DNA of 64,000 nucleotides, from assembly GCA_038209515.1 (NCBI GenBank), contig JBBQXQ010000002.1, positions 12,364-76,363 on the forward strand, read 5' to 3'. Both the position numbers and the translations under genes were made by a program. Positions 1 to 22,735 of this stretch are shown here, piece by piece; positions within the stretch are counted from its first letter, which is position 1, and every line of letters starts with the position of its first letter. The DNA comes from Gemmatimonadales bacterium. GTDB taxonomy: Bacteria; Gemmatimonadota; Gemmatimonadetes; Gemmatimonadales; GWC2-71-9. The notes beneath the pieces were generated by a model that was not told the DNA's origin, did no database searches, and worked only from the letters and a program-made list of their open reading frames with translations.

Positions 1-584
1 AGTCCCGCCAGAGCGACGAAGGAGCGATCATAGCTCTCCCACGTGGCCTGATCTTCGGCCGAGAGAAGGCCGGCGCGCCAGCCTTGCGGCCCATACCAGC
101 CGCGCCAGAAACTCACGTGCAGGAGTGAGTTGGCAACCGCTCGTCCATCGCGGATGATGTGAATGAACTTCGCGTCCTCGAAAATCTCATTCAGGAATCC
201 GATGCGCGGCCACCCCGTGATCTTGGCCAGGAAGCGGTTTCGCGCCGGCGTGAGCATGGGCTGGATCGCTCCGTGCACCCGCTTCTTGACCCGGGCGGTC
301 ACGTCCGTGCGTACGAGGTCCCGGCAAGGCTCCGAGAAGCCGTAGGCGAATGTATCCCAGAACCGGTAGCACTCACCGGGCCGGATCCGCTGTCCGAAAA
401 GCCGGCGAAGGAGTGGATTACCCATCGCCTCGACCGCCCATTTATTCCAGGTCGGTCTAGTAGGGTACCAAAGAGAGAATCCGGACATCCACATCAGGTG
501 CGGGTGCGTCGCCAGCAGGCGGTGAAACACGGTTGAGCCGCAGCGTCCGGTTCCTACAATTATGATCGGTTTGGTAATCGTCAT
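1..584 (-). CDS. PAPS-dependent sulfotransferase; the C-terminal part runs off the left edge
   Basis: Absent from the ORF track because there is no stop inside the window. Hand translation from the ATG at 584..582 gives MTITKPIIIVGTGRCGSTVFHRLLATHPHL...AKFIHIIRDGRAVANSLLHVSFW. GTGRCGST matches the 5'-phosphosulfate-binding loop. IIRDGRxxxNS matches the 3'-phosphate-binding motif of bacterial sulfotransferases. Confidence 0.8.
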   Translation of the reverse strand, partial: MTITKPIIIVGTGRCGSTVFHRLLATHPHLMWMSGFSLWYPTRPTWNKWAVEAMGNPLLRRLFGQRIRPGECYRFWDTFAYGFSEPCRDLVRTDVTARVKKRVHGAIQPMLTPARNRFLAKITGWPRIGFLNEIFEDAKFIHIIRDGRAVANSLLHVSFWRGWYGPQGWRAGLLSAEDQATWESYDRSFVALAG

Positions 585-823
585 ATGGTTCGAGTTGGTC
601 ACCTTATGATCCGCGTCCGAAATAATCTTCGGCCAGCCTATCGGTGCGCTCTAGACCGAGGTGGCGCGACATGGGGCGGGTGAGCACGATCCATGCCCCC
701 AGACATCGCTGAAGCCAGGCATGAGCCACGGTGGGACGCAGTTTCCCTGCGACGTTATGCATGACCACCGCAATGCTGTAGCGATTGCGCGACATTTAGG
801 GGGCATGGCTCCTGTCTCGAATC

Positions 824-1906
824 TCACTCGACATTTATCGTCGCCCGGTGCCACGCGTTGTTGTTATAACCTTTGACGTTCCATGTCGCGTTGGTGTTCG
901 GCGGCTGAGGGACCCCCGCGGTATCGGTGGCCCGTACCACGAGCGTGTGACGCCCGCGGGCAAGGTCCAACATCGTCTCCCAAAGCGACCAGGTCCACCC
1001 TGCCCCACCGGTTACGATCCGCGCCTGAGTCCAGTCGTGCCCGCCGTTGGAAGACACCTCGACTGCCGTGAGCGAACGGCCGCCTGAACCCATCGCCCAC
1101 CCGTACACTTGCACTCGGCCCGCGGCAACCGCGTGCGCCGGCGTGGGGTGCAGGATAACGGAATTGAGCGGGATTTCACTCAGGACGGCACCACGGGAGA
1201 CCTCGCGCGAATCCTGCGGGTCGACCTCGCGCTGCATGCGGTACGCCTTGCGCTGAAAGTAATTGGGGGACGGCTCTTCCAGCAGCGTAATACGGCCGAG
1301 CCATTTGACACTTCTCGCGCCGATCCAGCCGGGCACCACCGCCCGAAGCGGAAATCCGTGCACCACTGGAAGGGGCCTCCCATTGAGCTCGCTCGCCAGG
1401 ATCACGTCGTCCCCGAGCGCTTTGGGCAGGTCGATCGAACCGCCGAAGCCAAACTGATCACCCTGTCGCTCCACCTGATCCAGGCCGACGAACTCGACAT
1501 GCCGCGCCCCCTTCGCCACTCCCACGACGTCGAGGAGATCCCGCAGGGACACGCCGGTCCACCGGCCCGTGCCGGCCGGCTCGGGCCCCCAGGGAAGCTC
1601 GCCTGGCAAGGGCCCCAGGGCTAAGAACTCGTTCCGCCTTAGCCCTGCGCATACGAGTGTCGCCGTTACCTGTCGCTGGGGAAGAGCACGGCGCAGCTCC
1701 TCGAGCGAAAAGCTGGACGCAGATTCCACCAGGCCACCCACTTCGAGTCGCCATGTGCTGGAGTCGATCTGAGGAACTGGGGCGTGACTGCGGGTGAAGA
1801 ACTGGTCGATTGGGGTAACGAGATGATTGCCTCGTACCGGCCAGATCGCCGTATTGAGGCCATCGGGATCGTGGACCAGTCGAGGGCTCTTCACCGTCGG
1901 CTTCAC
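824..1906 (-). CDS. Sulfite oxidase-family molybdopterin oxidoreductase with no recognisable signal peptide
   Basis: 360 aa ORF. LVCAGLRRNEF contains the Mo-ligating Cys motif of sulfite oxidases (CAGNRR-like). The C-terminal Ig-like dimerisation region reads VQVYGWAMGSGG...VEVSSNGGHDW. The N-terminus is neither hydrophobic nor Tat-like. Confidence 0.85.
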   Translation of the reverse strand: MKPTVKSPRLVHDPDGLNTAIWPVRGNHLVTPIDQFFTRSHAPVPQIDSSTWRLEVGGLVESASSFSLEELRRALPQRQVTATLVCAGLRRNEFLALGPLPGELPWGPEPAGTGRWTGVSLRDLLDVVGVAKGARHVEFVGLDQVERQGDQFGFGGSIDLPKALGDDVILASELNGRPLPVVHGFPLRAVVPGWIGARSVKWLGRITLLEEPSPNYFQRKAYRMQREVDPQDSREVSRGAVLSEIPLNSVILHPTPAHAVAAGRVQVYGWAMGSGGRSLTAVEVSSNGGHDWTQARIVTGGAGWTWSLWETMLDLARGRHTLVVRATDTAGVPQPPNTNATWNVKGYNNNAWHRATINVE

Positions 1907-1915
1907 AGCTGCGCC

Positions 1916-2980
1916 TCAGGAGGGCTGGGCGAACACCCGCACGTTGGTGGGAGACACATACACCCGCTTGCCCTTGGTGAGACCCAGGCTCTCAAAACGG
2001 CCGCGGGGAATGTGAGCCTCGATGGTCCTGCCGCCATCGACAAGATCCAGTTCCACCCGAACGACTGGTCCGAAGGCACGAACATGGCGGACCACCCCCT
2101 CCAGAGACGAAGCACTCGAGCGGGAAGGCTCCAGCTCCACGTCGTAGGTGCGGACGTAGGCTATGCCGGCCTGATCCGGCGCGCCAGCCCACTCGGGGGC
2201 CTCCAGCTCGCTCTCGCCGATGTTCACCCGTCCCTGATGAATTCGGCCGTGAAACAGGTTGACATCACCCAGGAAGCCATAGACGAAGGGGGTCGCGGGG
2301 CGCTCGTAGACTTCCTCAGGAGTCCCGTTCTGCTCGATCCTGCCCTGGTTCATGATCACCACGCGATCGGAGACCTCCAGCGCCTCCTCCTGGTCGTGGG
2401 TGACGAACACACTGGTGACGTGAACCTCCTCATGCAGGCGGCGCAACCAGCGGCGCAGCTCCTTCCGCACCTTGGCGTCGAGCGCACCGAACGGCTCGTC
2501 GAGCAGCAGCACTTTGGGCTTCACTGCGAGGGCCCGTGCGAGCGCCACACGCTGGCGCTGTCCACCGGACAGCTCGGACGGCCGACGCTCGGCCAGGACC
2601 TCGAGCTGGACCAGCCGCAGCAGTCCCATGACGGTGTCCCGGATTTCCGCTTCCGAGGGCCGCACGCGTCTCGGCCGGACCCGCAGCCCAAACGCGATGT
2701 TCTCGAAGACGCTCATGTGCCGGAACAGGGCATAGTGTTGGAACACGAAGCCCACTTGGCGCTCACGCACCGGCTGACCGGTCGCGTCCTCCCCCTGGAA
2801 ATGGATCGTGCCCTGATCCGCCGGCTCCAGGCCGGCGATGATTCGCAACAGGGTGGTCTTGCCGGATCCCGACGGCCCAAGCAGCGCCACCAGCTCTCCG
2901 CCCGGAACATCGAGGCTCACGTTGTCCAGCGCCACGAAGTCGCCGAACGTCTTTCGCAGGTTGCGTACCTCGATGCTCAT
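1916..2980 (-). CDS. cysA: Sulfate/thiosulfate ABC transporter ATP-binding protein
   Basis: [78 protein letters not shown]. Start re-picked at the ATG 2980..2978, which overlaps the cysW stop as ATGA. The track ORF is extended to 3046. Confidence 0.95.
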
Positions 2981-3891
2981 GCCGCGATCCTTTCGGGAAT
3001 GCTTTCGAGATCGGCTGGACCGGCTGTTGCTCGGCGCTGCTGCCACTCGACCAGGGACTTCAGCGCCAGGGTGACCAGCGCCAGGAAGGTAAGCAGCGAT
3101 GCCACTGCGAAGCTCGCCGCGAAGGCGTACTCGTTGTAGAGGATCTCCACGTGGAGCGGCAGCGTATTGGTCTCACCCCTGATGTGGCCGGAGACCACCG
3201 ACACCGCGCCGAACTCTCCCATCGCCCGCGCGTTGCAGAGGATGAGGCCGTAGAGCAGGCCCCACTTGATGCTTGGCAACGTGACCCGGAAGAAGGTCTG
3301 CCAGCCTCCGGCCCCCAACACCATGGCCGCCTCTTCCTCCTCGACACCCTGCTCCTGCATCAGGGGGATGAGCTCGCGGGCCACGAACGGGGCGGTGATG
3401 AACATGGTGGCGAGCACGATACCCGGCACCGCGAAGATGATTTTGACGTCATGCTGCGAGAGCCAGGGTCCGAACCATCCATGGGCACCAAAGAGAAGCA
3501 CGAAGATCATTCCTGAGATCACCGGTGAGACTGCGAACGGCAGGTCTATGAGGGTGATCAGAAGATTCTTTCCCGGGAAGGAGAATTTCGAGATACACCA
3601 CGCGGCGGCAACGCCGAATACGACGTTTACCGGCACCGCGATCAGCGCCACCAGCAGGGTCAGCCGCGCGGCACTGAGCGCGTCTGATTCCGTGATGGCC
3701 GCCCAGTAGGCCGGCAGTCCCTTGCCGAGCGCCTGGGCAAAGACAAGCACCAAGGGGAGCAGCAGGGTCACCGCCAGAAAGCCAAGCGCGATGGCGATCA
3801 AAGTCCAACGCACTGCCCGCGACTCGCCGGTGGCCCGGGTGACAGCTCGCGGTGCCAATGCAGCCGCGCGGTCGATCGCCGCGGTCGCCAT
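2977..3891 (-). CDS. cysW: Sulfate ABC transporter permease
   Basis: 304 aa polytopic membrane protein between cysT and cysA. Typical CysW-like sequence [17 protein letters not shown] and the EAA-type loop [22 protein letters not shown]. Confidence 0.9.
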
Positions 3892-3892
3892 G

Positions 3893-4720
3893 CTAGGCGG
3901 CCGTGCGGCGCCGAGCCGCCCACTGGAGCAGGTTGATCGTGAGGAGAAGCCCGAAGGAAATAATTAGCATGACCATCGCGATGGCGGTCGCACCGGCATA
4001 GTCGTATTGCTCCAGTTTTGTGATGATCAGTAACGGCACGATCTCGGTCTTCATCGGCATATTGCCGGCGATGAAGACCACTGAACCGTATTCTCCCACT
4101 GCCCGGGCGAACGCCAGCGCGAAGCCGGTGAGCAGCGCGGGCGCTATGGTGGGGAATACGACCCGGGTGAAGGTCTGCCAGCGTCGGGCGCCGAGGCTGG
4201 CGGCAGCTTCCTCGACCTCCACCTCCAGGTCATCGAGCACCGGCTGCACCGTGCGGACCACGAACGGAAGGCCGATGAAAACCAGGGCCACCGTTATTCC
4301 CAGCCAGGTGTACGCCACCTTGATGCCCAGCGGGTCGAGACGGCTACCGATCCAACCGTTGGCCGCGTAGAGTGTGGTGAGCGCGATGCCGGCCACGGCC
4401 GTCGGCAAGGCAAACGGCAGGTCCACCATGGCGTCCACGACCCGCCGGCCGGGGAACCGGTACCGCACCAGCACCCAGGCCACCAGCAGCCCGAACACCG
4501 TGTTGATCAGTGCGGCCACGAATGAGGCGCCGAAGGTGACCCGGTAGGAGGCCATCACTCGGGGAGCGGTGACAATAGCCCAGAGCGCCGACCCCGACAG
4601 TTCCGACGTGCGTGCAAAGACAGTCGCGAGTGGGAGCAGCACCACCAGGCTGAGATAGGTGCAGGTGATCCCCAGCGAAAGCCCGAATCCGGGGAGTACG
4701 CTCCGCGACGTTTGCCTCAT
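3893..4720 (-). CDS. cysT: Sulfate ABC transporter permease
   Basis: 275 aa membrane protein. EAA loop [21 protein letters not shown]. One-nucleotide gap to cysW, and it lies downstream of sbp. Confidence 0.9.
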
Positions 4721-4723
4721 ATT

Positions 4724-5752
4724 CTAGCGCCCCGGCTGATAGATCTGATCGAACAGCGCCCCGTCGGCGAAGTGAGTGGCCTGCGCCTTCTTCCATCCCC
4801 CGAACACATCGGTAACAGTGACGAGGCTCACTTTGGGAAACTGCGCCGCATACTTCGCCGCCACCGAGGCAAGTCTGGGACGATAGAAATGGCGTGCCGC
4901 GATCTCCTGCCCTGTCTCGGTGTACAGATACTCCAGGTAGGCCTGCGCGACGGCCTTGGTGCCATGCTTGCCGGCGATCTTGTCCACCACCGCCACCGGC
5001 GGCTCGGCAAGGATGCTGAGGGAAGGCGCCACGATCTCGAACTTCCCCTGTCCCAACTCCTCGATCGCGAGCAGGGCCTCGTTCTCCCAGGCGATGAGGA
5101 CGTCACCGATTCCCCGCTCCACGAAGGTGGTCGTGGCTCCGCGGGCACCGGCATCGAGCACCGGAACATTTTTATAGAGCCGGGTCACGAACTCCTTGGC
5201 GGTCGCCTCGTTGCCGCCGGGCTGACGTAAGGCCCAGGCCCACGCGGCCAGGTAGTTCCACCGAGCGCCGCCTGAGGTCTTGGGGTTAGGAGTCACCACG
5301 GAGACACCCGGCTTGGCCAGGTCACCCCAATCCTTGATTCCCTTGGGATTCCCCTTGCGGACCAGCAGTACAATCGTGGACGTGTACGGCGAGCTGTTAT
5401 TCGGGAGGCGGCTCTGCCAATTGGCCGGCAGCAATCCCCCCTTTTCCGCGATCTGGTCGATATCGTACGCCAGGGCGAGGGTGACCACGTCGGCCTCGAG
5501 ACCATCGATCACGGAGCGTGCCTGCTTCCCGGACCCACCGTGCGACTGGCGGGCCGTCACGTCCTGGCCGGTCTTGCCCTTCCAAAACGTCGCGAACTGC
5601 TGATTGAAGTCCTCATACAATTCGCGGGTCGGGTCATAAGACACGTTGAGCAGGGTGACTGGCTTCGGAGTATCCTGGGCCACGGCAATGCCGGCGCCGG
5701 CCATGAGCGCGAGCAGAGGGAGGGAGCCGGTCAGAGTGAGTCGGGTGCGCAT
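4724..5752 (-). CDS. sbp: Periplasmic sulfate-binding protein
   Basis: Signal peptide [40 protein letters not shown]...[31 protein letters not shown] is near-identical in pattern to E. coli Sbp/CysP as I recall it. Confidence 0.92.
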
Positions 5753-5787
5753 AGTCTTCAGAGTGCCCTCTTATGGTGGGGTCGGGA

Positions 5788-7161
5788 TCAGAACGAGTGC
5801 TGCACGCGAGTCACCACGAAATTCTCTGCCTCGCGGTCGCCCGCGGCGGTCCCACCGGTGAAGGTGGTATGCTCATAGTCGACCACAACCTTGATAGCCC
5901 GCGCGAGGTACCAGTTGACGCCCACTGCCCAGGCTTTTGCCTTGCTCGGCGTGCTGGCGGGGCTGGCAAAGGTGGGAAACGTGGCGTCATCGATGCTGAG
6001 CTCGCTGTAACGCGCCGCCAGCTCGAGGGCGCCGAAGCTGCCCGCCTTCGGGTCGAATGCCTTCTTGGGAGCGGCGCTCTTGAACGAGTTCTTCTCGCCG
6101 GTGAGGAAGAAGGAGCAGGTGGTCTGCCACGCGGTATGCTTGAGCTTGACGGTCGCCGCACCGGCGCGGCTCACAGCCTGCCACGATTGGATGTACTCGG
6201 CATGCAAGCCCAGCGGGCCGGTATGGAGGTAAGCCTGAGGCGCCAGGCGGGCCCGGCGGCCGTTGGCGAACACGTTGTTCGCGGGTGTTGTCGTGCTACT
6301 GGCGTAGCGGAACCAGGTCTGCTGCCCCGGCGTGCGATAGCTGGCGAGTGCGGATGCAGCGGCGGTCCCGCGCTCGAGCCCAGTTGTGCCGGCGACCCCA
6401 ACGCCAAGCCCCCCCAGCGTGCCGGTCTTGAATGGCTGGAGGAAGACGCGACCCGCGAAATCCTTTGCGTCGCTTACGTCACCGTCCCCATTACCTAGAT
6501 CCGGCACACCATTGAAGACCCCGGCCTGCCACGTAAGGCTCCCACTCCCGATGTCACCCGAAAGCTGGAGACCGACGTCACGGTTGGGGGCGAGATTGGT
6601 TGCGAGCGCGCGCTCGGCAAACACGATGTCGCTCGCTGCCTGGTAACGCTCCAGGTCGACTGCGGGTTTGAACTTGCCGGCTCGCACCGCGAACGCAGGC
6701 GCGATCTTCACGTCGGTATAAGCGTCGAACAGCACCGTGGTCCCCTGGCCGAAGTCGGGCTGCACCCGGAACTCGAGGTACTTGCCCACGGTTGCTTCCA
6801 GGATGGGCCGGGCTCGGCGGATAAAGAACGTGTTCGTCACCGGGACAGCACTGTCGCTCAGAAAAAAGCGCCCGTCCGTCTGAACCAGGCCCTTGAGCCG
6901 GACAGCGAATTTCCCGTCAGCCGATTTGATGCTGAATCCGTCCTTGCTGCTGGCGGTGGCCGATACCTTGTCTTTGGCCGCCGCGGCGGCGCTGTCGGCG
7001 GCGAGTTCGCGAAGCCGTTGAAGAATTCGAACCTGCTGGTCGAGCTCGTTGACCCGTGCCTCCAGCGACGTACTATCCTGTTGTGCCACGATTTGTGGTG
7101 CCCATACAACAGTTCCTGCGATCACAATTAAGCTGCTAGTCCAATACCGGACACCCCTCAT
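5788..7161 (-). CDS. Anion-selective outer-membrane porin of the phosphate-selective porin O/P family
   Basis: Start re-picked at the ATG 7161..7159 (MRGVRYWTSSLIVIAGTVVWAPQIVAQ, a signal peptide), which overlaps the upstream stop as ATGA. An N-terminal coiled segment LEARVNELDQQVRILQRL is followed by alternating beta-strand sequence ending ...FVVTRVQHSF, with a C-terminal Phe typical of outer-membrane beta-barrels. Confidence 0.8.
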   Translation of the reverse strand: MRGVRYWTSSLIVIAGTVVWAPQIVAQQDSTSLEARVNELDQQVRILQRLRELAADSAAAAAKDKVSATASSKDGFSIKSADGKFAVRLKGLVQTDGRFFLSDSAVPVTNTFFIRRARPILEATVGKYLEFRVQPDFGQGTTVLFDAYTDVKIAPAFAVRAGKFKPAVDLERYQAASDIVFAERALATNLAPNRDVGLQLSGDIGSGSLTWQAGVFNGVPDLGNGDGDVSDAKDFAGRVFLQPFKTGTLGGLGVGVAGTTGLERGTAAASALASYRTPGQQTWFRYASSTTTPANNVFANGRRARLAPQAYLHTGPLGLHAEYIQSWQAVSRAGAATVKLKHTAWQTTCSFFLTGEKNSFKSAAPKKAFDPKAGSFGALELAARYSELSIDDATFPTFASPASTPSKAKAWAVGVNWYLARAIKVVVDYEHTTFTGGTAAGDREAENFVVTRVQHSF

Positions 7162-7466
7162 ACACCGATCTCCCGAGAGCTCGAGGTGGGTGGCTTCCGG
7201 TGGTCCGGTCGGCCCTCTGACGCGGGCCACTTCACGGTCGCGCCGCGCTCGACAATGGCACCGTCTGGTTGCGTAACATCTGTCTGCAAGCGCACTTTCT
7301 CCCGCTTCTCGAGCTGGACCACGCGGCCGTCATGAATCACCAATTCGATCGCGCCATAGCGAATCGAGCGGAGCGCCAGGATCAGCTCATGGAGCAGCCC
7401 TGAGGGGAGAGACGTCGGCCCAGGCGCGCCTAGGGAATCGGCCGGCTGGGGTAATCGAGTAGCCAT
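7158..7466 (-). CDS. YezD-like small protein (DUF2292 family)
   Basis: Core LHELILALRSIRYGAIELVIHDGRVVQLEKREKVRL matches the YezD/DUF2292 pattern (..YGsv.i.vhdG.v.qie..ek.r), a family often found in sulfur-assimilation operons. It is the first gene after the AT-rich operator-like region. Confidence 0.75.
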   Translation of the reverse strand: MATRLPQPADSLGAPGPTSLPSGLLHELILALRSIRYGAIELVIHDGRVVQLEKREKVRLQTDVTQPDGAIVERGATVKWPASEGRPDHRKPPTSSSREIGV

Positions 7467-7469
7467 ATT

Positions 7470-7504
7470 CCTATATATCCTATCTTACAGATAGAGTAAA
7501 TAGG
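7470..7504. promoter_or_regulatory. Nested inverted repeats in an AT-rich spacer; candidate operator/promoter of the sulfate-import operon
   Basis: CCTATatatCCTATCTtacAGATAGagtaaATAGG. The inner perfect palindrome is CTATCT-tac-AGATAG (7480..7494). The outer arms are CCTAT (7470..7474) and ATAGG (7500..7504). It lies between the Rrf2 stop (7549) and the yezD-like start (7466). Confidence 0.4.
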
Positions 7505-7548
7505 CAATCGGCATGCCACTCGGTTCGCCGAGGGTGTCAGGTAAGAGA

Positions 7549-7989
7549 TCAGCGAGGAAGCAGTTTGACCTGTCGGACCTTACGACGCAGCGAGGCGAGG
7601 GTGGTCCCGTCGAGGACCTTCGCTGTCGCGTTGCGGACTTCCGTCATTGCCAGGTGGACTCCGCACACCGCCTCGTCGGGACAGTCCGCGCAGGGGACGT
7701 AGGCGGTCTGGCTGGCACACGGAACAGGAGCAAGAGGGCCATCGAAAATGCGGACGATCTGACCCAGGTGGATATCGGCCGGGTCGCGTGCCAGAAGGTA
7801 TCCCCCGCCCTTTCCCTTCCGACTCTGCAGAATACCCTGGTTCTTGAGGCCGAGCAGGATGAGCTCGAGAAACTTCGGCGGGATCTGCTCCGCTCGCGCG
7901 AGATCGGCGATGCGCATCGGCTCCTCAGGCTCGGAGTCGGCCAGTGCGAGGAGTGCTTTAATGGCGTACTTGGCCTTCTTGGAGAGCAT
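7549..7989 (-). CDS. Rrf2-family transcriptional regulator with a Cys cluster, so probably Fe-S binding
   Basis: Start re-picked at the ATG 7989..7987: MLSKKAKYAIKALLALADSEPEEPMRIADLARAEQIPPKFLELILLGLKNQGILQSRKGKGGGYLLARDP, a canonical Rrf2 winged HTH. Cys cluster PCASQTAYVPCADCPDEAVCGVH. Confidence 0.9.
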   Translation of the reverse strand: MLSKKAKYAIKALLALADSEPEEPMRIADLARAEQIPPKFLELILLGLKNQGILQSRKGKGGGYLLARDPADIHLGQIVRIFDGPLAPVPCASQTAYVPCADCPDEAVCGVHLAMTEVRNATAKVLDGTTLASLRRKVRQVKLLPR

Positions 7990-7999
7990 GCGCGGCGGC

Positions 8000-14481: not shown

Positions 14482-15339
14482 TCAGGGTAGCGTGTCGTGT
14501 GATGGGATCATCCGTTCCGCCAACAGCTTTCGCGCCGACGTAAACGAGAAATCGTCCAGCAGTCGCTCTATGCGCTCTTGGGTTTTGGTCAAGTTGTTGT
14601 AGTGCCGGAACCGTTTGGACCATGACAGCCCTTCCACGCGAGGCTGCTCCGGATCTGTCTCCCACGGATGCAGGTAGAACATCACCGGCCGTCGCTGTTC
14701 ATTGCACCGACGCATCAGCCACCGTGTCACGGCATATGGATACAGCCGAAAGTATCCCCCGCCGCAGCACGGAACCCGCCGCCCGAGCACTTCGGCCACG
14801 CCCATGGGCAGCTCGGTCAAGCCTTCTGTCAGTTCATACGGCCCCAGCTCCGCGTCGGCTATGCCGTACTCGGGATGGAATCGAACCGGAAACACCGACG
14901 AGTCGTATCGAATCCCGCTTTCCTTTAGGATGTCCGCGGCCCACAAGGTCTTTCGCGTCACCGAGAACGATGGAGCTCTAAAGCCGCGCACTTCCTGGCT
15001 GGTCGCTTTTGCCAGCGCTTCGAGAGACCGTTGCAAATCGACCCGGAACTCCCCCGGCTGCATAAATGTCAGCAACCGATGCGAGTATCCATGGGTCGCG
15101 ACCTCGTGCCCCTGGCGTTCGACTTCCTTCACTAAGTCGGGGAACCGGTCCGCTACCCAGCCCAGCACAAAAAACGTCGCTTCCACCCGGCGCTGCCGGA
15201 ACAAGTCCAGTAACCGCAGAGTGTTCTGCTCCACCCGCGATTCGCATTTGTCCCAGTCAGCGTACGGAATGAACCGGCTCAGGTTGTAGACGCAGAACCA
15301 GTCCTCCAAGTCCACCGACATCACGTTCTTCACTGTCAC
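14482..15339 (-). CDS. Polysaccharide deacetylase (NodB fold with a DUF3473-like C-terminal part)
   Basis: MSVDLEDWF (metal/catalytic Asp motif), ATHGYSH (His-His motif), and FRAPSFS. As I recall, this subfamily is common in exosortase/PEP-CTERM-type EPS loci. The start is uncertain between the GTG at 15339 and the ATG at 15321. Confidence 0.9.
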   Translation of the reverse strand: MTVKNVMSVDLEDWFCVYNLSRFIPYADWDKCESRVEQNTLRLLDLFRQRRVEATFFVLGWVADRFPDLVKEVERQGHEVATHGYSHRLLTFMQPGEFRVDLQRSLEALAKATSQEVRGFRAPSFSVTRKTLWAADILKESGIRYDSSVFPVRFHPEYGIADAELGPYELTEGLTELPMGVAEVLGRRVPCCGGGYFRLYPYAVTRWLMRRCNEQRRPVMFYLHPWETDPEQPRVEGLSWSKRFRHYNNLTKTQERIERLLDDFSFTSARKLLAERMIPSHDTLP

Positions 15340-15461: not shown

Positions 15462-16343
15462 CTACATGTATCCATCGCGCCGGAGGGTCTCCAGCCCGCC
15501 ACCACCTTCCTTGTCCTGTGCCCTCCCCGAGCGCTCGGCGATGTTCGCGAATTTACCCGATTGCAGCTCCACGATGATGTCGTCCACGTTGCGGGCGTCG
15601 GACTCGACCGCGTTGGTGCAGGGGTGGCAGCCGAGGGACCGGTAGCGTTTTCCGTTACCCTGATTGTAGTAGAGCGAGACGGTTGGAATCTCCTCGCGTC
15701 GGATGTACTCCCAGATGTTGAGCTCGGTCCAATCGAGAAGCGGGTGGATCCGAAGGTGGGTACCCGGCGCGAACTCGGTCTTGAACTGGTTCCAGAACTC
15801 CGGCGGCTGATCGCCGACATCCCATTGCGACTGCGTAGTGCGCGGCGAGAAGTACCGCTCCTTGGAACGGCTTCCCTCCTCGTCAGCGCGAACGCCCACA
15901 ATGACGCCGGTGAACGGCTCCGTATTCCGGTCCAGCTCATACACCTTCTTGGTGTGGTTGAGCCGGTACCGCGGCCACTCACCGCTCAGCGTGTGCTTGA
16001 GCGCATCTGTCTTGAGCGCCTTACAGCAGGCGATCCGGTCCACGGCGCCGTCGGGAAAGGTCCGCTTGTCCTCCAGCGCCTGGCGGTTCTGGCCGTAAAT
16101 CATGGTCAAATTCCACTCCAGCGCCAGCCGGTCCCGGTATTCGATCATCTCCGGGATCTTGTAGGAGGTGTCAATATGGATCAGCGGAATGGGCACGTGG
16201 CCGAGGAAGGCCTTTCGCGCCAGCCAGAGGAGTACCGTGCTGTCCTTTCCGATGGACCAGAGCATCCCCAGGTTCTTGAAGTTGGCGTACGCCTCCCTGA
16301 GGATATGCACGCTCCGATTTTCCAACTGGTCGAGATGATCCAT
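15462..16343 (-). CDS. cysD: Sulfate adenylyltransferase subunit 2
   Basis: Start re-picked at the ATG 16343..16341: [46 protein letters not shown] (PP-loop SxGKDS). The C-terminal ...[20 protein letters not shown] is typical of CysD. Confidence 0.95.
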
Positions 16344-16354: not shown

Positions 16355-16945
16355 TCAGAGTTGGCCTTCGAACCGCGCGAGTACTTCCGCGACACACTGC
16401 TCGACACTCAGAGCGCGGGTGTCGAGCGTCAGCTCCGGGGTCTCCGGCGGCTCGTAAGGGTCATCGATGCCCGTGAAGTTTCGAAGCTCGCCGCGCCGGG
16501 CCCGGGCATACAATCCCTTGACGTCCCGACGCTCACACTCCTCCAGCGGCGTTGCCACGTAGATCTCGACGAACTCGCGGCAGAGCTTTCGGATGAAGTC
16601 GCGCGACTCGCGGTAGGGCGAGACGAGCGACGCCACCACCGTCACTCCGTGGGCCGCCAGCCGGCTTGCCATGTACCCGGTCCGGCGGAGATGCTCCTCC
16701 CGCTCGGCTCGGGTAAAGCCGGTGTTGGGAAAGACTTCCCGCAGGGCATCCCCATCGAGGTACTCCACTTCTACACCCCGGCTCTCCAGCTCGGCGCGCA
16801 CCCGCGTCGCTATGGTGCTCTTACCCGATCCGGAGAGCCCGGTAAACCATAACACCGGGGCGGCTGCTTTAGTTCGAGACTCGCGCGGCATAGCCTCGGG
16901 CGATGGCGGGGGGCAAGAGTCAGGCCGCGTCGAGGTCCGGCTCAC
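16355..16945 (-). CDS. cysC: Adenylylsulfate (APS) kinase
   Basis: [16 protein letters not shown] (P-loop), [33 protein letters not shown]. The start is uncertain: the GTG at 16945 overlaps the cysQ stop, and there is an ATG at 16891. Confidence 0.95.
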
Positions 16946-17703
16946 AGACCGATGACGAAGCTGGTGTTGCGAAGGTCAGGCTTGTTGTAGGTGAGCGGCG
17001 AGGGCCGCTCGCCATCTCGACCGGACTGGCGGTAGATGCAATCCCCCGCAGCCACGTCCCACTCCATGGTGGGCCCCAGGCGGGGGTAAATGTCCGCGCG
17101 TCCCTCTGCCACCCAGCAGAACTTGAGCGAGCTGCCAGCCTTGACTCGGCGAGCGACCGGTATGGTGTGGAGGTACTCCTCCAACTCCGGCGAGGGATGG
17201 GAGAGACTCTCGACCACGGTGAGCGGTGTCCCTGGCGTGGGCGCGGTCGAATAAATCCGCTCGGGGGGTCTCGCCTTTTCCTCCCGCCAGGCTCCCTCGC
17301 CCTTCACCGCCCAGTAAAGCAGGTCCAGTGCCGGAGCGAGCACTACACCCAACACCGGCTCGCCATTCTCGATCAGTGCGACGTTGACGGTGAATTCCGC
17401 CCGATGCTTGATGAACTCCTTGGTGCCATCGAGGGGATCGACCAACCAGAACCGGGACCATCCGCGACGGGTCTCGAACGACGCGGCCTCGGCCTCCTCG
17501 GAGACCACCGGTGTGGCCGGGTCAAGCCGGCGGAGCCCGTCAACCAGGAGCCCATGGGCTACCTCGTCGGCGAGCGTGACGGGGCTGCGGTCGTCCTTCT
17601 CCCGCACTGCCACCGCCGCCGCGCCGTTGTAGTAGGTCATCGTCGCCCGGCCGGCCTCACGGGCGAGGCCGGTGACGGCCGACCGAAGCTCAGCCGCTAC
17701 CAT
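16942..17703 (-). CDS. cysQ: 3'(2'),5'-bisphosphate nucleotidase (PAP phosphatase)
   Basis: [20 protein letters not shown], and WDVAAGDCI, the inositol-monophosphatase/CysQ family motifs. Confidence 0.9.
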
Positions 17704-19472
17704 GGCCGGAAGATGATTCCTTTGTCCTGGATGTGCGCCTTGAGGCGGTCCACCGACTCCGCCACAGGGCCGCGGGGCAGATGGAGGTCGAAGGCAAGAT
17801 CCGTGGTAATATTGTCGCCGGCCCAGACAGTCTCGATCAGGTCGGGCTGGACCGCGGTCTTGATGACCTCCAGGTCGTCCTGGGTTAGCTCGGCCGCCGC
17901 AACGATGAGAATGATGCCTGCATCAAGCATGAGATTGGCGACCTCGGCCAATCGGCGCATGTGCTCCAGGCGGTTCACCTGTTTGCGTTCAATGTCCGCA
18001 TCCACGCCGTAGAGCACGTTGCCGATGCCCAGGAAGTACACCACCTTGCCATCCTCGAACAGCTTGCCTTCCAGGGCCTTGGCGACACCTTTCCGTTCAG
18101 TCTCGTTCGAGCCGGTCACCAAGATCAGTGCGGCTTTCTGATTGTACTTCTCGGCCCGGTGCTCGGGCTGGATGATGCTGGGCTCCCACTTGTAATTGCG
18201 GAGCAGCACCTGGTTGCGTACCGAGGCCTGGCGATCGGGGAGCGCCTCCCGGACGATGCCGCCGCCCCGGATCTCGAAGTCATCGACGATTACGAACCGG
18301 CTGGTGGCCGCGACATCCTCGGCCAAGTCGCAGGCGATGGCGCGGTCCAGTTTGAGGACGCATTCGGCTACATCGTGCCGCTGAACCACTTTCCGCTGCT
18401 CCGTGGCATCGAGAGTCGAAGCGTCCATCACCCGGAGGATTTCCTCCACTCGAGCGGTCACGCGGGCCGTTCCGAGTTTAAGCAGATACTCTTTCCGCTT
18501 TACCATCGGCTCTTTGCCGAGCCAGAAGAGACTCACCCGCAGCCTCGTGGTCACCTGGGGACGGGGCTCGGACTCCAGCGTGGCCATCTCCCCGCGCGGG
18601 ATGTAGATCTGCTCCTCCAGCGTGAACCCGATGGCCCGGCCGGCCTCGGCCCGGCTCTGCACCGGCCGATTGAAGGCTTCGATGGTCTTCACCCGGCTCT
18701 TCTTGCCCGATGGGTAAAAGATCACCGAGTCGCCCACTCTCACCGAGCCCGATTCAATCGTGCCCGCAACGATGCGCCGGTCATCACCTTGCTTGGTGAA
18801 CTTGTAGACGTCCTGGACGGGCATGCGGAACGACCGCTCAGTCGGGGCCGGCTCACTGCGGAACCCGTCCAGCGCCTCGAGGACGGTGGGTCCCTGGTGC
18901 CAGGGGATGTTGGGTGACCGCTTGGCGATGTTGTCTCCACCGCGGGCGGAGACCGGTATGAAGCAGGCGGCCTGGATGCCGACCTGGTCGAGGAACGCGC
19001 CGTACTCGCGGACAATTCGATCGTAGACGCCGCGATCCCACCCGACCAAATCCATCTTGTTGACCACGACTGCGAGCTGGCGAATGCCGAGGAGTGATAC
19101 CATGTACCCGTGGCGCCGTGAGTTTTCCTGCACGCCCTCGGCGGCGTCGATCACCAGCAGCGCCGCCTCCGCGCGGGCAGCACCGGTGATCATGTTTTTG
19201 AGAAACTCGATATGACCGGGCGCGTCGAGAATCAGATAGTAGCGGAGGTCACTCTTGAAGAACACTCGGGCGGCGTCAATGGTGATGCCCTGCGCCTGCT
19301 CGTCCTTGAGGGCGTCGAGCAGGAACGCATACTCGAAAGGTTTCGAGTTCAGCTCACATTGGGCCCGCACCTGCTCCAGCTTCCCCTCGGGAAGGGAATG
19401 CGTGTCGGCCAGGAGGCGACCAATCACGGTGCTCTTGCCGTGATCGACGTGGCCCACGATCACGATGTTCAT
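17697..19472 (-). CDS. cysN: Sulfate adenylyltransferase subunit 1 (GTPase) fused to a degenerate APS-kinase-like C-terminal domain
   Basis: [21 protein letters not shown] (G1), DAPGH (G3), NKMD (G4). The C-terminal ~150 aa aligns to CysC, for example [24 protein letters not shown] against [24 protein letters not shown]. The P-loop is replaced by [14 protein letters not shown] and LDGD by LGIG. Confidence 0.9.
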
Positions 19473-19604: not shown

Positions 19605-22073
19605 TCACTGCTCCTCCGCCGCCGCATAGTCAAAGGGATAGTAGTAGTCCCCATACTGCGACACCTCCCCACCCGGATCGTTAAGCACCGTTCCTACCAC
19701 CGTTGCTCCGACATTGACGAGTTGCCGGTGCGCCCGCTTCGCAGCGACGCGGTCCGTCTGACCAGCCCGTACTACCAGGAGCACGCCGTCTGCCAGGGAG
19801 GCAAGAATTCCGGCGTCCGCCGTGGCCAGCACCGGTGGGGTGTCGAGAATGACTAGGTCGAAGCTCTTAGCGAGCTCCTGAAGTAGCACGCGCATCCGCA
19901 CTCCGCTGAGGAGGTTGGAGGGATTAGTCGGTAGAGCTCCACAGGTAAGAAGCGATAGCCCTCTCACCTGAGTGGGGCGGATCACATCGGTTACCGGCCG
20001 GCCGGATTCGCTGGAGCCAACGGCCGGATTGAATGTGAGTGACTGGGCGGCATCCGAGCCGTCGTAGGAGGGCGTCAGCAGCTCCATCAGGCCGGGAGAC
20101 CGCGGCACCTGGAAGAGGCCGTGTTGGCGGGGGCGGCGGACGTCGCAATCGATCAGGAGCACCCGCAGCCCGTCGTAGGCGAAGGTAACCGCCAGATTCG
20201 CCGCGGTCACAGTCTTCCCCTCGCCGGGAGCAGCGCTGGTGACGACGAGGGTCTTCATGTTGTCCCCCTGCTCGCACCATAGCAGGCTGCTCCGCAGCAT
20301 CCGGAACGCCTCCACCCCGACCGAGAACGGTTGTGTCGTCGTGCCAAGTGAACTGGTTGCGCCGTTGGACTCCAGCTTTGCCTTCTTCCCGGGACCGAGC
20401 AAGCCGCCGAGGCGCCGCTGGTTCGACCCCGTCCCCGTCAGGCGAGGGATCACTGCCAGCCCGGGCACGTGCAGGGCAATCTCGAGATCTTCGGGCTTCC
20501 GGATCGAGGTGTTGAGGGCCTCGAGCAGAAACGCACCGCCGGTCCCGAGCAGGAACCCCAGCAGAAGACCCAGACTGAGCTTGAGGGGAGTGGTTGTCCA
20601 CTCCGGCATGTACGGGAGGTCGGCCAAGCTGACGATCTCGACGTCCCCCGCTTCGACTTCCTCGGCCATCCGGGCGTTCTGGTACCCTTGGCGAACCTGG
20701 TCGCTGGCGGAGGTCAGGGTTTGGACTCTGCTGGTGAGGCGCGCCTCCTCGGCAGCCATTGCAGGCAGCACCTGCAGCGAAGCTCCACTCCGCGCTCGAA
20801 GGGCCCGGAGTGATTGGATCTGAGCATCGAGACTAGCCACGTGACTAGACACGGCCTGCCGGAGCTGGTTCTTGGTGCTGGCCAAGAGCCCCTTGAGCTG
20901 TATCAGATCCGGGTTGGTCGGTGCCGCCCGCCAAGGCCCCGTCGTCATTGAGTCAACACGGTACTGATACGTCTCGAGCTGTCGAAAGCTGTTGCTGACC
21001 GTTGGGTTTTCAGCCATCGCGGGCGATGTGGCAAGCGCCCGGAGGGCCTCGGTTTCACCCGCCTCGCCACCCTTCTTGAACTGGGCGAGCAGCGTGCTGA
21101 ACGTGGCGCGATCGGCTTCGAGCTGACTGGCCCGGCCTTCCAGTGTCGTCCGAAACGTCTGGACCTGGTCCAGTGCAGTCTGAGAACTGGCCAGCTGCTG
21201 CCGGCTACGGAATGATGCCAATTCACTCTGGGCACGGGCAAGCATGCTGTCGGTCTGCTGTAGTTGCTCTTCCAAGAACTGCCGGCGGCGTTGGGACTTC
21301 TGCCTGGCCGACAGGATGTTGAGATGCTGAAAGGCGAGGACGGTCGTGTTGACTACTCGCTGGGACATGCGGGGACTCAGCGAGACGTAACTGACATCCA
21401 GGATGTCGGTCTCCGGCCGATGAGTCACACTCACACCGGCATACAGCTTGTCGATCGCCATCTCCCTGGAGATCACGTAGAGGGTGGCCTCCGGGATGTT
21501 GGGCGCCTTGCGGACGGCGAATCGGACGTGGCCGAGGTCCAGCATTTCCCCGTAGGAAGCCCGCGCCTCTCGATTAGCTACCTTTGCCTTCACGCCGTTC
21601 TGGTAAAACGTCACCAGGATGCTATCGCTGGTGACTCCCGAATCGACCCGCGCCCCCTCCAGTTGATTGCTGGCGAATTCGGGTGTCATTGAGATCAGTC
21701 GCAGGCCCAGGGAATCCACGACCGCACCCATGACGCTTCGGCTGCGCACCAGCTCCACAATCGAGGCGATGGGATCCGCCAAACGATCAAGCTCCGGCGT
21801 CGGCTCGATCCCACCGGTGAGGGCCTGGCGCTCCCCGGCCAGACGGAGTACCGCGCCCGCTTTATAGGTTGCGGGTGATCTCAGTGCGAGGTAAGCGCCC
21901 GCGCCGACGCCGAGCAGCGTGAGCAGCAAGACCAGGCGGTAACGCCGGCGGAGAACCCCGAGCATCTGTCCCAGCGAGATGAACTCCCCCCCGTGACCGG
22001 GACGCTCCAACGCGCTGTCGTAGGGAGCCGGACCGGAAGGAAGCTGCCGCGCGGGCTGATACATGTCTGGCAT
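19605..22073 (-). CDS. Polysaccharide co-polymerase / bacterial tyrosine autokinase (Wzc/GumC-like)
   Basis: 822 aa. N-terminal TM segment plus a long coiled periplasmic region. The C-terminal kinase has Walker A TSAAPGEGKTVTAANLA, Walker A' VLLIDCDVRRP and Walker B DLVILDTPP. C-terminal Tyr cluster SQYGDYYYPFDY. Confidence 0.9.
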   Translation of the reverse strand: MPDMYQPARQLPSGPAPYDSALERPGHGGEFISLGQMLGVLRRRYRLVLLLTLLGVGAGAYLALRSPATYKAGAVLRLAGERQALTGGIEPTPELDRLADPIASIVELVRSRSVMGAVVDSLGLRLISMTPEFASNQLEGARVDSGVTSDSILVTFYQNGVKAKVANREARASYGEMLDLGHVRFAVRKAPNIPEATLYVISREMAIDKLYAGVSVTHRPETDILDVSYVSLSPRMSQRVVNTTVLAFQHLNILSARQKSQRRRQFLEEQLQQTDSMLARAQSELASFRSRQQLASSQTALDQVQTFRTTLEGRASQLEADRATFSTLLAQFKKGGEAGETEALRALATSPAMAENPTVSNSFRQLETYQYRVDSMTTGPWRAAPTNPDLIQLKGLLASTKNQLRQAVSSHVASLDAQIQSLRALRARSGASLQVLPAMAAEEARLTSRVQTLTSASDQVRQGYQNARMAEEVEAGDVEIVSLADLPYMPEWTTTPLKLSLGLLLGFLLGTGGAFLLEALNTSIRKPEDLEIALHVPGLAVIPRLTGTGSNQRRLGGLLGPGKKAKLESNGATSSLGTTTQPFSVGVEAFRMLRSSLLWCEQGDNMKTLVVTSAAPGEGKTVTAANLAVTFAYDGLRVLLIDCDVRRPRQHGLFQVPRSPGLMELLTPSYDGSDAAQSLTFNPAVGSSESGRPVTDVIRPTQVRGLSLLTCGALPTNPSNLLSGVRMRVLLQELAKSFDLVILDTPPVLATADAGILASLADGVLLVVRAGQTDRVAAKRAHRQLVNVGATVVGTVLNDPGGEVSQYGDYYYPFDYAAAEEQ

Positions 22074-22078
22074 GGGCC

Positions 22079-22735
22079 TTAGCGCCTGCTGGCGCGGTCG
22101 ATAAAGAGGTAAATGGAGGCGGTCGAGCCTATGACCCCGAGCGCCGGCATGAAGATGTCCTTGAAGAACGACTTCTTCCGGTCAACAACGATTTGATCTC
22201 CGGAATGCACTCGGATCTTCGCGGCCGTACCCTCCGCATCCAGTAGACTGACGACCAGCTCACGCTGCCGCCCACTGCCCTCCTGCCGCAGCACCCTCAC
22301 CCGGTTCCGGTTGGCGTACTGGCTGGGACCACCGGCTTGGGCCACGGCGTCTGCGATCGAGGTCTCCGGACGTACGGCGAATACCTGAGCTCGCCCGACC
22401 TCACCCGACACGGCTACTCGCACTAGCGGCTCGACGACGAACTGAGGGTCTTGCTCGAAACGAGCCAGAAAATTCCGGACGTTGGCTTCGGCGGTACTGA
22501 AGGGCACCCCCCCAACACGCACCGCACGGTAGAGCGGGTGGGTGATGGTGCCATCCGGACCCACGATAAAGTCGCCGCTCATCTCCGGCTTGCGCCACAC
22601 CACGACGCGCACCGAGTCGCCCGGGGCCAGTGTAACCTGCTCAGTGGTCGGCGCCGGGCTCTGGGCCTGGGCTCTAACCGAAACCAACGAGGCCGCGGTG
22701 ATAACAAGAAGGGGTCGCAGAAACGAGCGTGGCAT
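22079..22735 (-). CDS. Polysaccharide export protein (Wza-like; Poly_export plus SLBB domains)
   Basis: Start re-picked at the ATG 22735..22733: MPRSFLRPLLVITAASLVSVRAQAQ (signal peptide). LAPGDSVRVVVWRKPEMSGDFIVGPDGTITHPLYRAVRVGGV is the classic Poly_export motif (PGD...G.i..P..G.v...G). Confidence 0.85.
   Translation of the reverse strand: MPRSFLRPLLVITAASLVSVRAQAQSPAPTTEQVTLAPGDSVRVVVWRKPEMSGDFIVGPDGTITHPLYRAVRVGGVPFSTAEANVRNFLARFEQDPQFVVEPLVRVAVSGEVGRAQVFAVRPETSIADAVAQAGGPSQYANRNRVRVLRQEGSGRQRELVVSLLDAEGTAAKIRVHSGDQIVVDRKKSFFKDIFMPALGVIGSTASIYLFIDRASRR

Follow-up and report, generated by a model that had tools for sequence, protein, structure and literature searches.

A gene cluster predicted to direct synthesis and export of a sulfated polysaccharide in a soil Gemmatimonadales bacterium

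We have analysed a 64,000-nucleotide stretch of DNA from a Gemmatimonadales bacterium (assembly GCA_038209515.1, contig JBBQXQ010000002.1, positions 12,364 to 76,363 of the forward strand), referred to below as the window and numbered from its first nucleotide. The genes at its left end, from position 1 to 22735, probably encode most of the biosynthetic set for a sulfated extracellular or capsular heteropolysaccharide of a soil Gemmatimonadales, built by a Wzx/Wzy pathway, exported through Wza and Wzc, and provided with its own supply of 3'-phosphoadenosine 5'-phosphosulfate (PAPS). We put the probability of this reading, which is made from sequence, at about 75%. The linkage on which it depends is more than chance, as the same genes lie together in dozens of related loci, rearranged ones included.

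Organisation of the cluster

The proteins of all genes between 1 and 33.2 kb, and of ten long open reading frames (ORFs) further right, were searched against the Pfam and NCBIfam profiles. A first-pass annotation, made from the letters of the sequence, had named a run of genes in a single orientation, from polysaccharide export to a sulfotransferase. The ORF listing and the profile support bear out the named genes, their order and their strand, giving 23 genes in positions 1-22735:

3-584, minus strand: sulfotransferase, N-terminal 194 residues of a gene cut by the left edge (Sulfotransfer_3, 2e-14)
824-1906, minus strand: sulfite-oxidase-fold, SorA/SorT-like molybdopterin oxidoreductase (Oxidored_molyb, 8.8e-54, and Mo-co_dimer)
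1916-2980, minus strand: cysA (NCBIfam sulfate ABC ATPase subfamily model, 385 bits, cutoff 343)
2977-3891, minus strand: cysW (NCBIfam CysW, 417 bits, above cutoff)
3893-4720, minus strand: cysT (NCBIfam CysT, 429 bits, above cutoff)
4724-5752, minus strand: sbp (NCBIfam sulfate-binding protein, 526 bits, above cutoff)
5788-7161, minus strand: outer-membrane anion porin with signal peptide (Pfam Porin_O_P, 3.7e-33)
7158-7466, minus strand: small DUF2292/OscA-like protein of the YezD family (PF10055, 2e-15; NCBIfam OscA below cutoff)
7549-7989, minus strand: Rrf2 regulator (Pfam Rrf2, 1.7e-36; best named NCBIfam model CymR, below cutoff)
8000-8812, minus strand: FkbM methyltransferase (TIGR01444, 54.6 bits, cutoff 37.7)
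8822-9685, minus strand: GNAT-like protein, 287 residues (tentative, from Foldseek of a low-confidence model)
9705-10988, minus strand: LuxC-like protein (Pfam)
10985-12079, minus strand: LuxE-like protein (Pfam)
12076-13485, minus strand: AMP-ligase, 469 residues (Pfam)
13482-14219, minus strand: FabG-like short-chain dehydrogenase/reductase, SDR (Pfam)
14209-14454, minus strand: acyl carrier protein, ACP (Pfam)
14482-15339, minus strand: polysaccharide deacetylase of the XrtA-system type (Polysacc_deac_1 and DUF3473; TIGR03006, 355.8 bits, cutoff 276.2)
15462-16343, minus strand: cysD (NF003587, 345 bits, cutoff 195)
16355-16891, minus strand: cysC, adenosine 5'-phosphosulfate (APS) kinase (TIGR00455, 197 bits, cutoff 138.7)
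16942-17703, minus strand: cysQ (TIGR01331, 267.5 bits, cutoff 228.8)
17697-19472, minus strand: cysN, GTPase with a degenerate APS-kinase-like C-terminal domain (TIGR02034, 342.5 bits, cutoff 336.1)
19605-22073, minus strand: Wzc-like co-polymerase and tyrosine autokinase (Wzz, GNVR and P-loop ATPase domains; TIGR01007, 159.8 bits, cutoff 108)
22079-22735, minus strand: Wza-like outer-membrane export protein, short form, 218 residues (Poly_export and SLBB, Pfam 1.2e-15 and 7.2e-10)

The left end of the run is truncated by the edge of the window, and polysaccharide genes extend to the right of 22735, up to about 29.6 kb. The minus-strand genes have a GC content at third codon positions (GC3) of 0.71-0.83, with the FkbM gene (0.63) as the exception. 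The long plus-strand ORFs are GC-rich at codon position 1 instead, and this codon-position pattern identifies them as antisense shadows.

Tight packing of the genes was largely as first described, most junctions being overlaps (of 4, 7 or 11 nt) or gaps of at most 50 nt. The count of three spacers longer than 80 nt has to be corrected to four. The additional one, of 239 nt (585-823, minus strand), separates the stop codon of the SorA-like gene from the start of the sulfotransferase gene, and would still be 221 nt long if the latter began at the GTG at 602; it contains no terminator or promoter consensus. Scans for sigma-70 promoters and intrinsic terminators yielded sites in numbers not above those in shuffled sequence, with none of them in the spacers of the minus strand, and no convincing operator emerged from a search for 10-mers common to the five or six spacers. 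No RNA family was found in the window with Rfam.

PAPS synthesis and recycling

The four genes that follow wzc, in the order cysN-cysQ-cysC-cysD, encode proteins that all score above their NCBIfam cutoffs, in agreement with the proposal that PAPS synthesis is coupled here to recycling of the by-product, 3'-phosphoadenosine 5'-phosphate (PAP). The standalone CysC has an intact P-loop, GLSGSGKST. CysN carries an APS-kinase-like domain of ~165 residues at its C-terminus (17697-18200), in which the P-loop site reads GSNETERKG. This degenerate form is retained in 11 of 11 orthologues that cover the site, in a domain that is 84-92% identical among them. Judged by its sequence, this tail of CysN is devoid of catalytic activity; the functional CysC is encoded two genes downstream. 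The kinase-like domain of fungal ATP sulfurylase acts allosterically, and by analogy with it the CysN tail is probably a regulatory nucleotide-binding pseudo-kinase.

The reductive branch of sulfate assimilation, stated at first reading to be missing from the run, was not found in a wider search either. A translation of the whole 64-kb window in all six frames contains neither the cysH motif ECG[LIV]H nor the cysteine-cluster motif of sulfite reductase. Among six relatives (loci L133-L138) examined by Pfam annotation for genes of assimilatory reduction, PAPS_reduct was matched only by CysD and NIR_SIR by no protein.

Sulfotransferases and the region to the left of the window

The truncated gene at the left edge was correctly proposed to encode a PAPS-using sulfotransferase. 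Its product belongs to Sulfotransfer_3 and has both PAPS-binding motifs, GTGRCGST at residue 11 (the 5'-phosphosulfate-binding motif, 5'-PSB) and RDGRAVANS at residue 145 (the 3'-phosphate-binding motif, 3'-PB). A full-length protein of 309 residues, P0121, is 100% identical to the fragment. The structure model of P0121 has a predicted local distance difference test score (pLDDT) of 82, and the solved structures closest to it are PAPS sulfotransferases, namely mycobacterial Stf9 and Stf1, tyrosylprotein sulfotransferase (TPST) and the CurM sulfotransferase, with TM-scores of at most 0.59. The model thus confirms the PAPS sulfotransferase fold; the structural matches do not reveal the acceptor. 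The protein database contains more than 2,000 homologues of this sulfotransferase, with identities to it of 77% or higher throughout the best 120.

The left flank of the window can be predicted from relatives L133, L071 and L073, two of which (L133 and L073) are ~92% identical in DNA to window positions 1-9271. Beyond the importer genes, L133 has a sulfotransferase of 312 residues and then a second one of 305 residues. These are followed by an S-adenosylmethionine (SAM) methyltransferase and an APH-like kinase on the opposite strand, and then by Wzx (Polysacc_synt_3), a family 4 glycosyltransferase (GT4), Wzy_C and a family 2 glycosyltransferase (GT2). Loci L071 and L075 agree with this arrangement. 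The first-pass annotation had asked what lies to the left of position 1; in the relatives, chiefly L133, it is more sulfotransferases, glycosyltransferases, Wzx and Wzy, with no cysH. In L015, L008, L075, L133, L134 and L138, too, the sulfotransferases are directly followed by Wzx and Wzy.

The methyltransferase and the APH-like phosphotransferase form a convergent pair between the sulfotransferases and Wzx in L133 (11571-13028), L071 (2091-3695) and L075 (4502-6016). The same pair is predicted to lie just to the left of the window, and hints at an extra methyl or phosphate decoration of the polymer.

Polysaccharide export genes

At the head of the run, the Wzc-like protein has two transmembrane segments around a periplasmic part and a tyrosine-rich C-terminal tail, YGDYYYPFDY. 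The Wza-like protein combines a signal peptide with a hydrophobic helix at the C-terminus, and is of the short form, its orthologues being called at 217-219 residues. The region immediately upstream of wza is described in one line:

22736-23159, minus strand: region of 424 nt upstream of wza, with a terminator-like hairpin (23083-23104) and T-rich run after the Big_2 gene

Because of this hairpin and the 424-nt gap, the main transcription unit probably starts at wza.

Conservation of the cluster in related loci

Related loci were collected in two ways. A scan of a genome collection with the LuxC-like protein gave 70 loci, the closest of which (74-83% amino acid identity) are nearly all from Gemmatimonadales or Gemmatimonadota metagenome-assembled genomes (MAGs), and a scan of metagenomes with the sulfotransferase fragment gave 62 more. 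Gene order in these relatives, which are MAGs and soil contigs, was tabulated by tblastn. Four blocks can be recognised: block A, Wza-Wzc-cysN-cysQ-cysC-cysD; block B, deacetylase, ACP, SDR, ligase, LuxE, LuxC and the 287-residue protein, sometimes with FkbM; block C, Rrf2-DUF2292-porin-sbp-cysTWA; and block D, in which Wzx, GT4, Wzy_C, GT2 and GT4 come after two to five sulfotransferases.

The synteny table shows that these blocks remain neighbours while their order changes. Loci L003 and L004 have the order of the window, A-B-C-D. In L008, L012, L013 and L015 the order is A-B-D and the importer is not in the cluster; in L006 and L023 it is B-A, with the acyl block ahead of Wza-Wzc-cysNQCD; and in L101 and L102 a sulfotransferase comes directly after the cysNQCD genes of block A. 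Eighteen loci include a sulfotransferase orthologue with 3 kb or more of sequence upstream, and 13 of them have a cys or importer gene within 5 kb.

As these 18 loci had been chosen through the sulfotransferase, a second sample of long contigs was taken through sbp alone (sbp 87-90% identical). All five contigs have the arrangement A-C, that is, Wza-Wzc-cysNQCD-Rrf2-DUF2292-porin-sbp-cysTWA. In four of them the sequence runs on to reach between one and five sulfotransferases and, in three of the four, Wzx as well; the fifth (L137) ends before that point. Block B is present in one of the five. An earlier view that the importer is only loosely associated with the cluster, based on its absence from L008, L012, L013 and L015, was therefore dropped. 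Since it is embedded in every contig of the sbp sample, the importer is a regular part of the unit, and the acyl module is an optional part. Comparative genomics had been named as a check on whether the adjacency is fortuitous and confined to this genome; the linkage occurs in many Gemmatimonadales MAGs and soil contigs.

The sulfate importer and its putative control region

The sbp, cysT, cysW and cysA genes encode a complete ABC importer, preceded by the porin gene, which in the relatives always lies between the DUF2292 gene and sbp. OscA, to whose family the DUF2292 protein is related, is named as a sulfur-starvation response protein. The spacer between the Rrf2 and DUF2292 genes (7467-7548) is 82 nt long and AT-rich, with 45% GC, and contains two elements:

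7504-7518, minus strand: sigma-54-type -24/-12 element, TGGCAT-N5-TTGC (pattern scan)
7480-7494, minus strand: inverted repeat CTATC-N5-GATAG, downstream of the sigma-54-type element (from the sequence)

The first is the only exact match to the sigma-54 pattern in the window. Comparison with the Rrf2-to-porin spacers of L003 (~12600), L004 (~13560), L014 (~12590), L073, L074, L111 and L133 shows that the element, as TGGCAY-N5-TTGCC, and a downstream inverted repeat are kept in seven of seven, eight of eight with the window included. The arms of the repeat co-vary between loci, being either CTATC/GATAG or ACTCTA/TAGAGT. The importer block very probably has its own regulated promoter, and on sequence grounds the two elements are probably a putative RpoN promoter and a putative Rrf2 operator for sulfate uptake. 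The picture of one unidirectional unit accordingly holds for strand and gene order; a single transcript for the whole run is unlikely, because the promoter-like element of the importer block is conserved.

Matches to the sigma-54 pattern with one mismatch are as numerous in the window as chance predicts. Two are intergenic, at 36845-36859 (plus strand), upstream of an ABC exporter gene (36905), and at 54582-54596 (minus strand), upstream of the ORF at 53664-54557. In two relatives, genes for an HTTM domain, the domain of vitamin K-dependent gamma-carboxylase, adjoin the importer block (L135, 20838-21029; L138, 13867-14829); the window has no counterpart.

Presence of the SorA-like gene after cysA is confined to the nearest relatives (L072, L073 and L133). 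Its product scores far below the SorA and SorT cutoffs (194 bits against 600 for NCBIfam SorA), and no signal peptide was detected in it.

The deacetylase, acyl and GNAT-like module

Between the PAPS and importer genes of the window lies a cassette of ACP, SDR, AMP-ligase, LuxE-like and LuxC-like genes, the order of which is kept in most of the 70 loci and in at least seven phyla (Gemmatimonadota, Eisenbacteria, Acidobacteriota, Bacillota, Chloroflexota, Betaproteobacteria and Omnitrophota being the taxa represented). Residues conserved at 95% or more include FWFDQMACSSP in the LuxC-like protein (Cys261), SSGTxGQ in the LuxE-like protein and Asp34-Ser35 in the ACP, and are consistent with activity. 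In other phyla the cassette has GNAT acetyltransferases, a CMP-sugar cytidylyltransferase, NeuB and polysaccharide deacetylase as neighbours. A luciferase fatty-acid reductase complex of the LuxCDE type was considered and rejected, the scores being 41 bits against a cutoff of 750 for NCBIfam LuxC and 81 against 550 for LuxE; LuxD, LuxA and LuxB were not found among the scanned window proteins. By sequence, the LuxC-like and LuxE-like proteins are homologues of lux proteins and not members of a lux system.

In most cassette-bearing Gemmatimonadales loci the deacetylase gene lies directly before the ACP gene, and the gene for the 287-residue protein comes after the LuxC-like gene; of three Eisenbacteria loci, one (L024) also has it in this position. 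Sequence and profile searches with the 287-residue protein gave no Pfam, NCBIfam or useful PDB match. Its AlphaFold2 (AF2) model has a pLDDT of 61, and acetyltransferases of the GNAT or Eis-like type make up nearly all of the 50 listed Foldseek matches (E < 1e-3); PF13527 is present in two homologues of the protein. We tentatively regard it as GNAT-like, and propose that it is an acyl-ACP:amino-sugar N-acyltransferase. With a deacetylase before the cassette and a GNAT-like protein after it, the arrangement suggests an 'N-acyl swap', in which an N-acetyl group would be removed, an unusual acyl-ACP built, and the new acyl group transferred to the free amine.

The FkbM gene is present in some relatives only, and this patchy presence together with its low GC3 suggests a recent insertion. 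The module and the FkbM gene are optional decorations and not part of the core. A deacetylase/N-sulfotransferase pairing like that of heparan (NDST) was rejected, as the deacetylase travels with the acyl cassette and not with the sulfotransferases.

The right flank

To the right of wza, the following genes complete the polysaccharide region:

23160-25088, minus strand: Big_2 lipoprotein (Pfam; no informative family match beyond Big_2)
25435-25914, plus strand: response regulator (profile search)
25911-27095, plus strand: GT4 (profile search)
27173-28384, minus strand: second lipoprotein (no informative family match, no Big_2)
28636-29595, minus strand: GNAT (profile search)

These genes (23160-29595) also flank the cluster in L006, L007, L023 and L118. 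The two lipoproteins, which bracket the divergently oriented response-regulator/GT4 pair, have nearly identical N-termini (MTY[TL]FKLARR, followed by a lipobox with GC), and may be accessory proteins of polymer processing or export. A strong terminator with a 12-bp stem lies at 27129-27156. From 29.6 kb rightward the genes are housekeeping ones (SbcCD, GcvP, an Opp transporter). Two minus-strand ORFs downstream of SbcCD (33237-36147; 647 and 307 residues) have no Pfam or NCBIfam match.

An XrtA/PEP-CTERM extracellular polysaccharide (EPS) locus was also considered, and rejected. Only the deacetylase passes its model, the export, kinase, chain-length and ligase models of that system all scoring below cutoff (76 against 180, 131 against 231, 91 against 279 and 142 against 592, respectively), and no exosortase is encoded in 1-33.2 kb.

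Proposed pathway and alternative explanations

From gene identities, the integrity of motifs and linkage that survives rearrangement, all of them observed, we infer a pathway together with its sulfation acceptor, its sulfate ester, its acyl chemistry and its regulation. Sulfate would enter through the Porin_O_P porin in the outer membrane and Sbp-CysTWA in the inner membrane, under a sigma-54-type promoter and an operator-like repeat for which the adjacent Rrf2 is the likely binding protein. CysD and CysN would form APS, which the standalone CysC would convert to PAPS. At least two PAPS-dependent sulfotransferases, one cut by the window edge and the others expected just to its left, would act on a lipid-linked repeat unit made by GT4 and GT2 enzymes, and CysQ would remove the inhibitory by-product PAP. 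The unit would then be flipped by Wzx and polymerised by Wzy, with export of the product by the Wzc tyrosine autokinase and Wza. Decoration may be added where the optional genes are present: the deacetylase would take the N-acetyl group off an amino sugar, the AMP-ligase, ACP, LuxE-like, LuxC-like and SDR proteins would make an unusual acyl-ACP, possibly a reduced hydroxy-acyl form, for transfer by the GNAT-like protein, and FkbM would add a methyl group. A self-contained route from sulfate through PAPS to a sulfated exported polymer, as first suggested, is thus supported by linkage that is both conserved and rearranged.

Several points weigh against this interpretation. Wzx, Wzy and most of the glycosyltransferases do not lie in the window, and their presence is deduced from relatives. 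No priming phospho-glycosyltransferase of the WbaP/WecA type was found, there being no Bac_transf or Glycos_transf_4 match among the scanned window and relative proteins; it may be encoded elsewhere. The sulfate ester is a prediction from genes, and the carriers are all uncultured MAGs or metagenome contigs. The structures closest to P0121 are Stf9, Stf1 and tyrosylprotein sulfotransferases and include no carbohydrate sulfotransferases; the acceptor cannot be read from the sequence. The importer's own promoter and the DUF2292/OscA-family gene point to control by sulfur status, not by EPS synthesis, and the cys genes and importer may be the organism's sole copies, serving assimilation as well.

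This last consideration leads to the possibility that the importer, and perhaps cysDN, are general sulfate-assimilation genes lying inside a polysaccharide locus, with the sulfotransferases drawing on a general PAPS pool. The sigma-54-like promoter, operator-like repeat, Rrf2 gene (best named match CymR) and DUF2292/OscA-family gene of the importer would fit such an origin, as would the position of the importer outside the cluster in L008, L012, L013, L015, L006 and L023. However, cysC and cysQ, which assimilation of the APS-reductase type does not need, stay beside Wzc through every rearrangement; the importer lies between cysD and the sulfotransferases in five of five sbp-centred samples; and in none of the examined loci is it adjoined by cysH, sulfite reductase or cysK. 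We consider this explanation unlikely. It is improbable, too, that the product is a sulfated glycoconjugate instead of a free EPS, either a lipopolysaccharide (LPS) O-antigen or a modified surface or S-layer protein, with the Wzy_C protein serving as ligase or oligosaccharyltransferase. The Wzy_C family of Pfam does span O-antigen ligases as well as polymerases, and the acyl cassette is otherwise known from flagellin glycosylation islands, but Wza and the Wzc autokinase, a hallmark of capsule and EPS export, head the cluster in every complete relative, and no flagellin, Maf or nonulosonic-acid gene was found among the profile-searched genes of the window.

A sulfolipid or sulfated small molecule was the alternative product put forward in the first-pass annotation. 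In this case a fatty aldehyde or alcohol made by the LuxE, LuxC and ACP proteins, or a menaquinone-type lipid, would be sulfated and the polysaccharide genes would be bystanders. LuxC and LuxE are indeed the fatty-acid reductase components of the lux system, the automatic JGI name of many of the sulfotransferase homologues is 'omega-hydroxy-beta-dihydromenaquinone-9 sulfotransferase', and mycobacterial Stf enzymes are among the closest solved structures. Against this, the cassette is absent from L074, L077, L101, L102, L134, L135, L137 and L138, which keep cysNQCD, sulfotransferases and Wzx/Wzy, and a fatty-alcohol sulfolipid is disfavoured because so many loci retain the sulfation genes without it. 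The setting of the cassette elsewhere, beside GNATs, CMP-sugar cytidylyltransferase, NeuB and deacetylases and, in the literature, within flagellin glycosylation islands, is that of glycan loci; the LuxC and LuxE equivalog scores given above are far under their cutoffs; and wherever the downstream sequence suffices, the sulfotransferase orthologues are followed by Wzx, a glycosyltransferase and Wzy. We regard a sulfolipid product as highly improbable, and a sulfated heteropolysaccharide exported by Wza and Wzc as the preferred reading.

Comparison with known systems

The combination of genes had initially not been recognised as a described system. It is less unprecedented than this implied, as the same design has been published for the capsule cluster of Cobetia marina KMM 1449, whose sulfated polymer has been solved structurally (Kokoulin et al. 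2025, PMC11766843). That polysaccharide cluster likewise contains cysN/cysC, cysD, cysQ, a sulfate transporter and sulfotransferases (PMC11766843). The differences are considerable. C. marina, a marine gammaproteobacterium and not a soil Gemmatimonadales, uses a Kps ABC transporter (group 3 capsule) in place of Wzx/Wzy with Wza/Wzc. It has a fused CysN/C, whereas here a CysN with a dead kinase-like domain is accompanied by a separate CysC, and a sulfate permease, whereas here there are a porin, a full ABC importer, Rrf2 and a sigma-54-like promoter. The present loci have, in addition, as many as five sulfotransferases and, optionally, an N-acyl module.

The xss (synechan) cluster of Synechocystis is also of the Wzx/Wzy type and contains a protein of the polysaccharide co-polymerase (PCP) kind together with two sulfotransferases (Maeda et al. 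2021, PMC8205485; PMC13125312), and has been proven genetically to yield a sulfated EPS (PMC8205485). Its description names no genes for PAPS synthesis, cysQ or sulfate import, and the term PAPS is nowhere used in that publication (PMC8205485). It differs further in that its outer-membrane polysaccharide export (OPX) gene lies elsewhere in the genome, in regulation by XssQRS, and in phylum.

The nearest likeness to the acyl cassette is found in the flagellin glycosylation islands of Aeromonas group II and the Enterobacteriaceae, which have the same five gene families, in Aeromonas in the same order (PMC7874193, PMC4875605). This comparison is one of gene families and order, not of sequence homology. 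The ACP/3-oxoacyl-ACP reductase/AMP-dependent synthetase/LuxE/LuxC cassette sits there in glycan-modification loci and is biochemically uncharacterised (PMC7874193, PMC4875605). In Aeromonas, pseudaminic-acid genes lie alongside and a GT2 (Fgi-1) follows luxC, whereas here the cassette is preceded by the deacetylase, followed by the GNAT-like protein and placed in an EPS locus. The tetronate genes of Vibrio cholerae O1, VC0248-VC0252 (wbeK-O), are a comparable five-gene set within a polysaccharide locus and a functional precedent, providing an unusual hydroxy-acyl group for the N-acylation of perosamine, and include WbeL, an ATP-binding enzyme of 471 residues, close in size to the 469-residue ligase here (PMC3441752). 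The sugar, the ABC-transporter pathway and the organism are different. An ACP may also belong to the V. cholerae set, as may a protein resembling LuxC/LuxE; no paper on the enzymology was found in literature searches that combined tetronate or perosamine with ACP or LuxC.

A dedicated second copy of the genes for ATP sulfurylase and for APS kinase beside a sulfotransferase, supplying PAPS for a secreted product, is familiar from rhizobial NodP/NodQ/NodH and from Xanthomonas RaxP/RaxQ/RaxST. The acceptors in those systems are a lipo-chitooligosaccharide and a peptide, and the systems are not known to include genes for polysaccharide assembly or export, a cysQ or an importer.

Implications

Recent reviews describe the known bacterial producers of sulfated polysaccharides as 'limited', and searches of the literature for Gemmatimonadota together with sulfotransferases or sulfated polysaccharides found nothing relevant. 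On the evidence of their genes, abundant soil Gemmatimonadales probably make a sulfated slime of a kind recorded to date chiefly from cyanobacteria and a small number of marine bacteria. A broader proposal seems to us evenly balanced: that in a widespread clade of soil Gemmatimonadales a single self-sufficient supercluster, having two to five sulfotransferases at each locus, directs production of a heavily sulfated heteropolysaccharide, its porin and ABC importer being controlled by sigma-54 and Rrf2 and the dead kinase domain of its CysN acting as an APS/PAPS sensor. If this is true, it would be the first time that a sulfated-EPS system has been defined genetically in organisms other than cyanobacteria and marine bacteria.

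Three subsidiary findings can be tested in their own right. They concern the pseudo-kinase nature of the CysN tail, control of the importer by sigma-54 and Rrf2, and the deacetylase and GNAT-like context of the LuxC/LuxE cassette. The last places a widespread, uncharacterised ACP/LuxE/LuxC glycan cassette beside a deacetylase and a GNAT-like protein, and so gives it a testable role in an 'N-acyl swap'. The importer, PAPS synthesis, PAP removal and sulfotransferases would together form a co-evolved toolbox of the kind that engineers of microbial sulfated polysaccharides report lacking, and the loci would be a source of new polysaccharide sulfotransferases.

For the organisms themselves, a sulfated-EPS locus that is conserved and abundant among soil Gemmatimonadales would carry this chemistry into terrestrial soils. 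It would provide a candidate explanation of the traits of desiccation and ion binding in a dry-soil phylum, and it offers a concrete set of genes with which to ask whether sulfated matrix polymers aid water retention and cation binding in dry soils.

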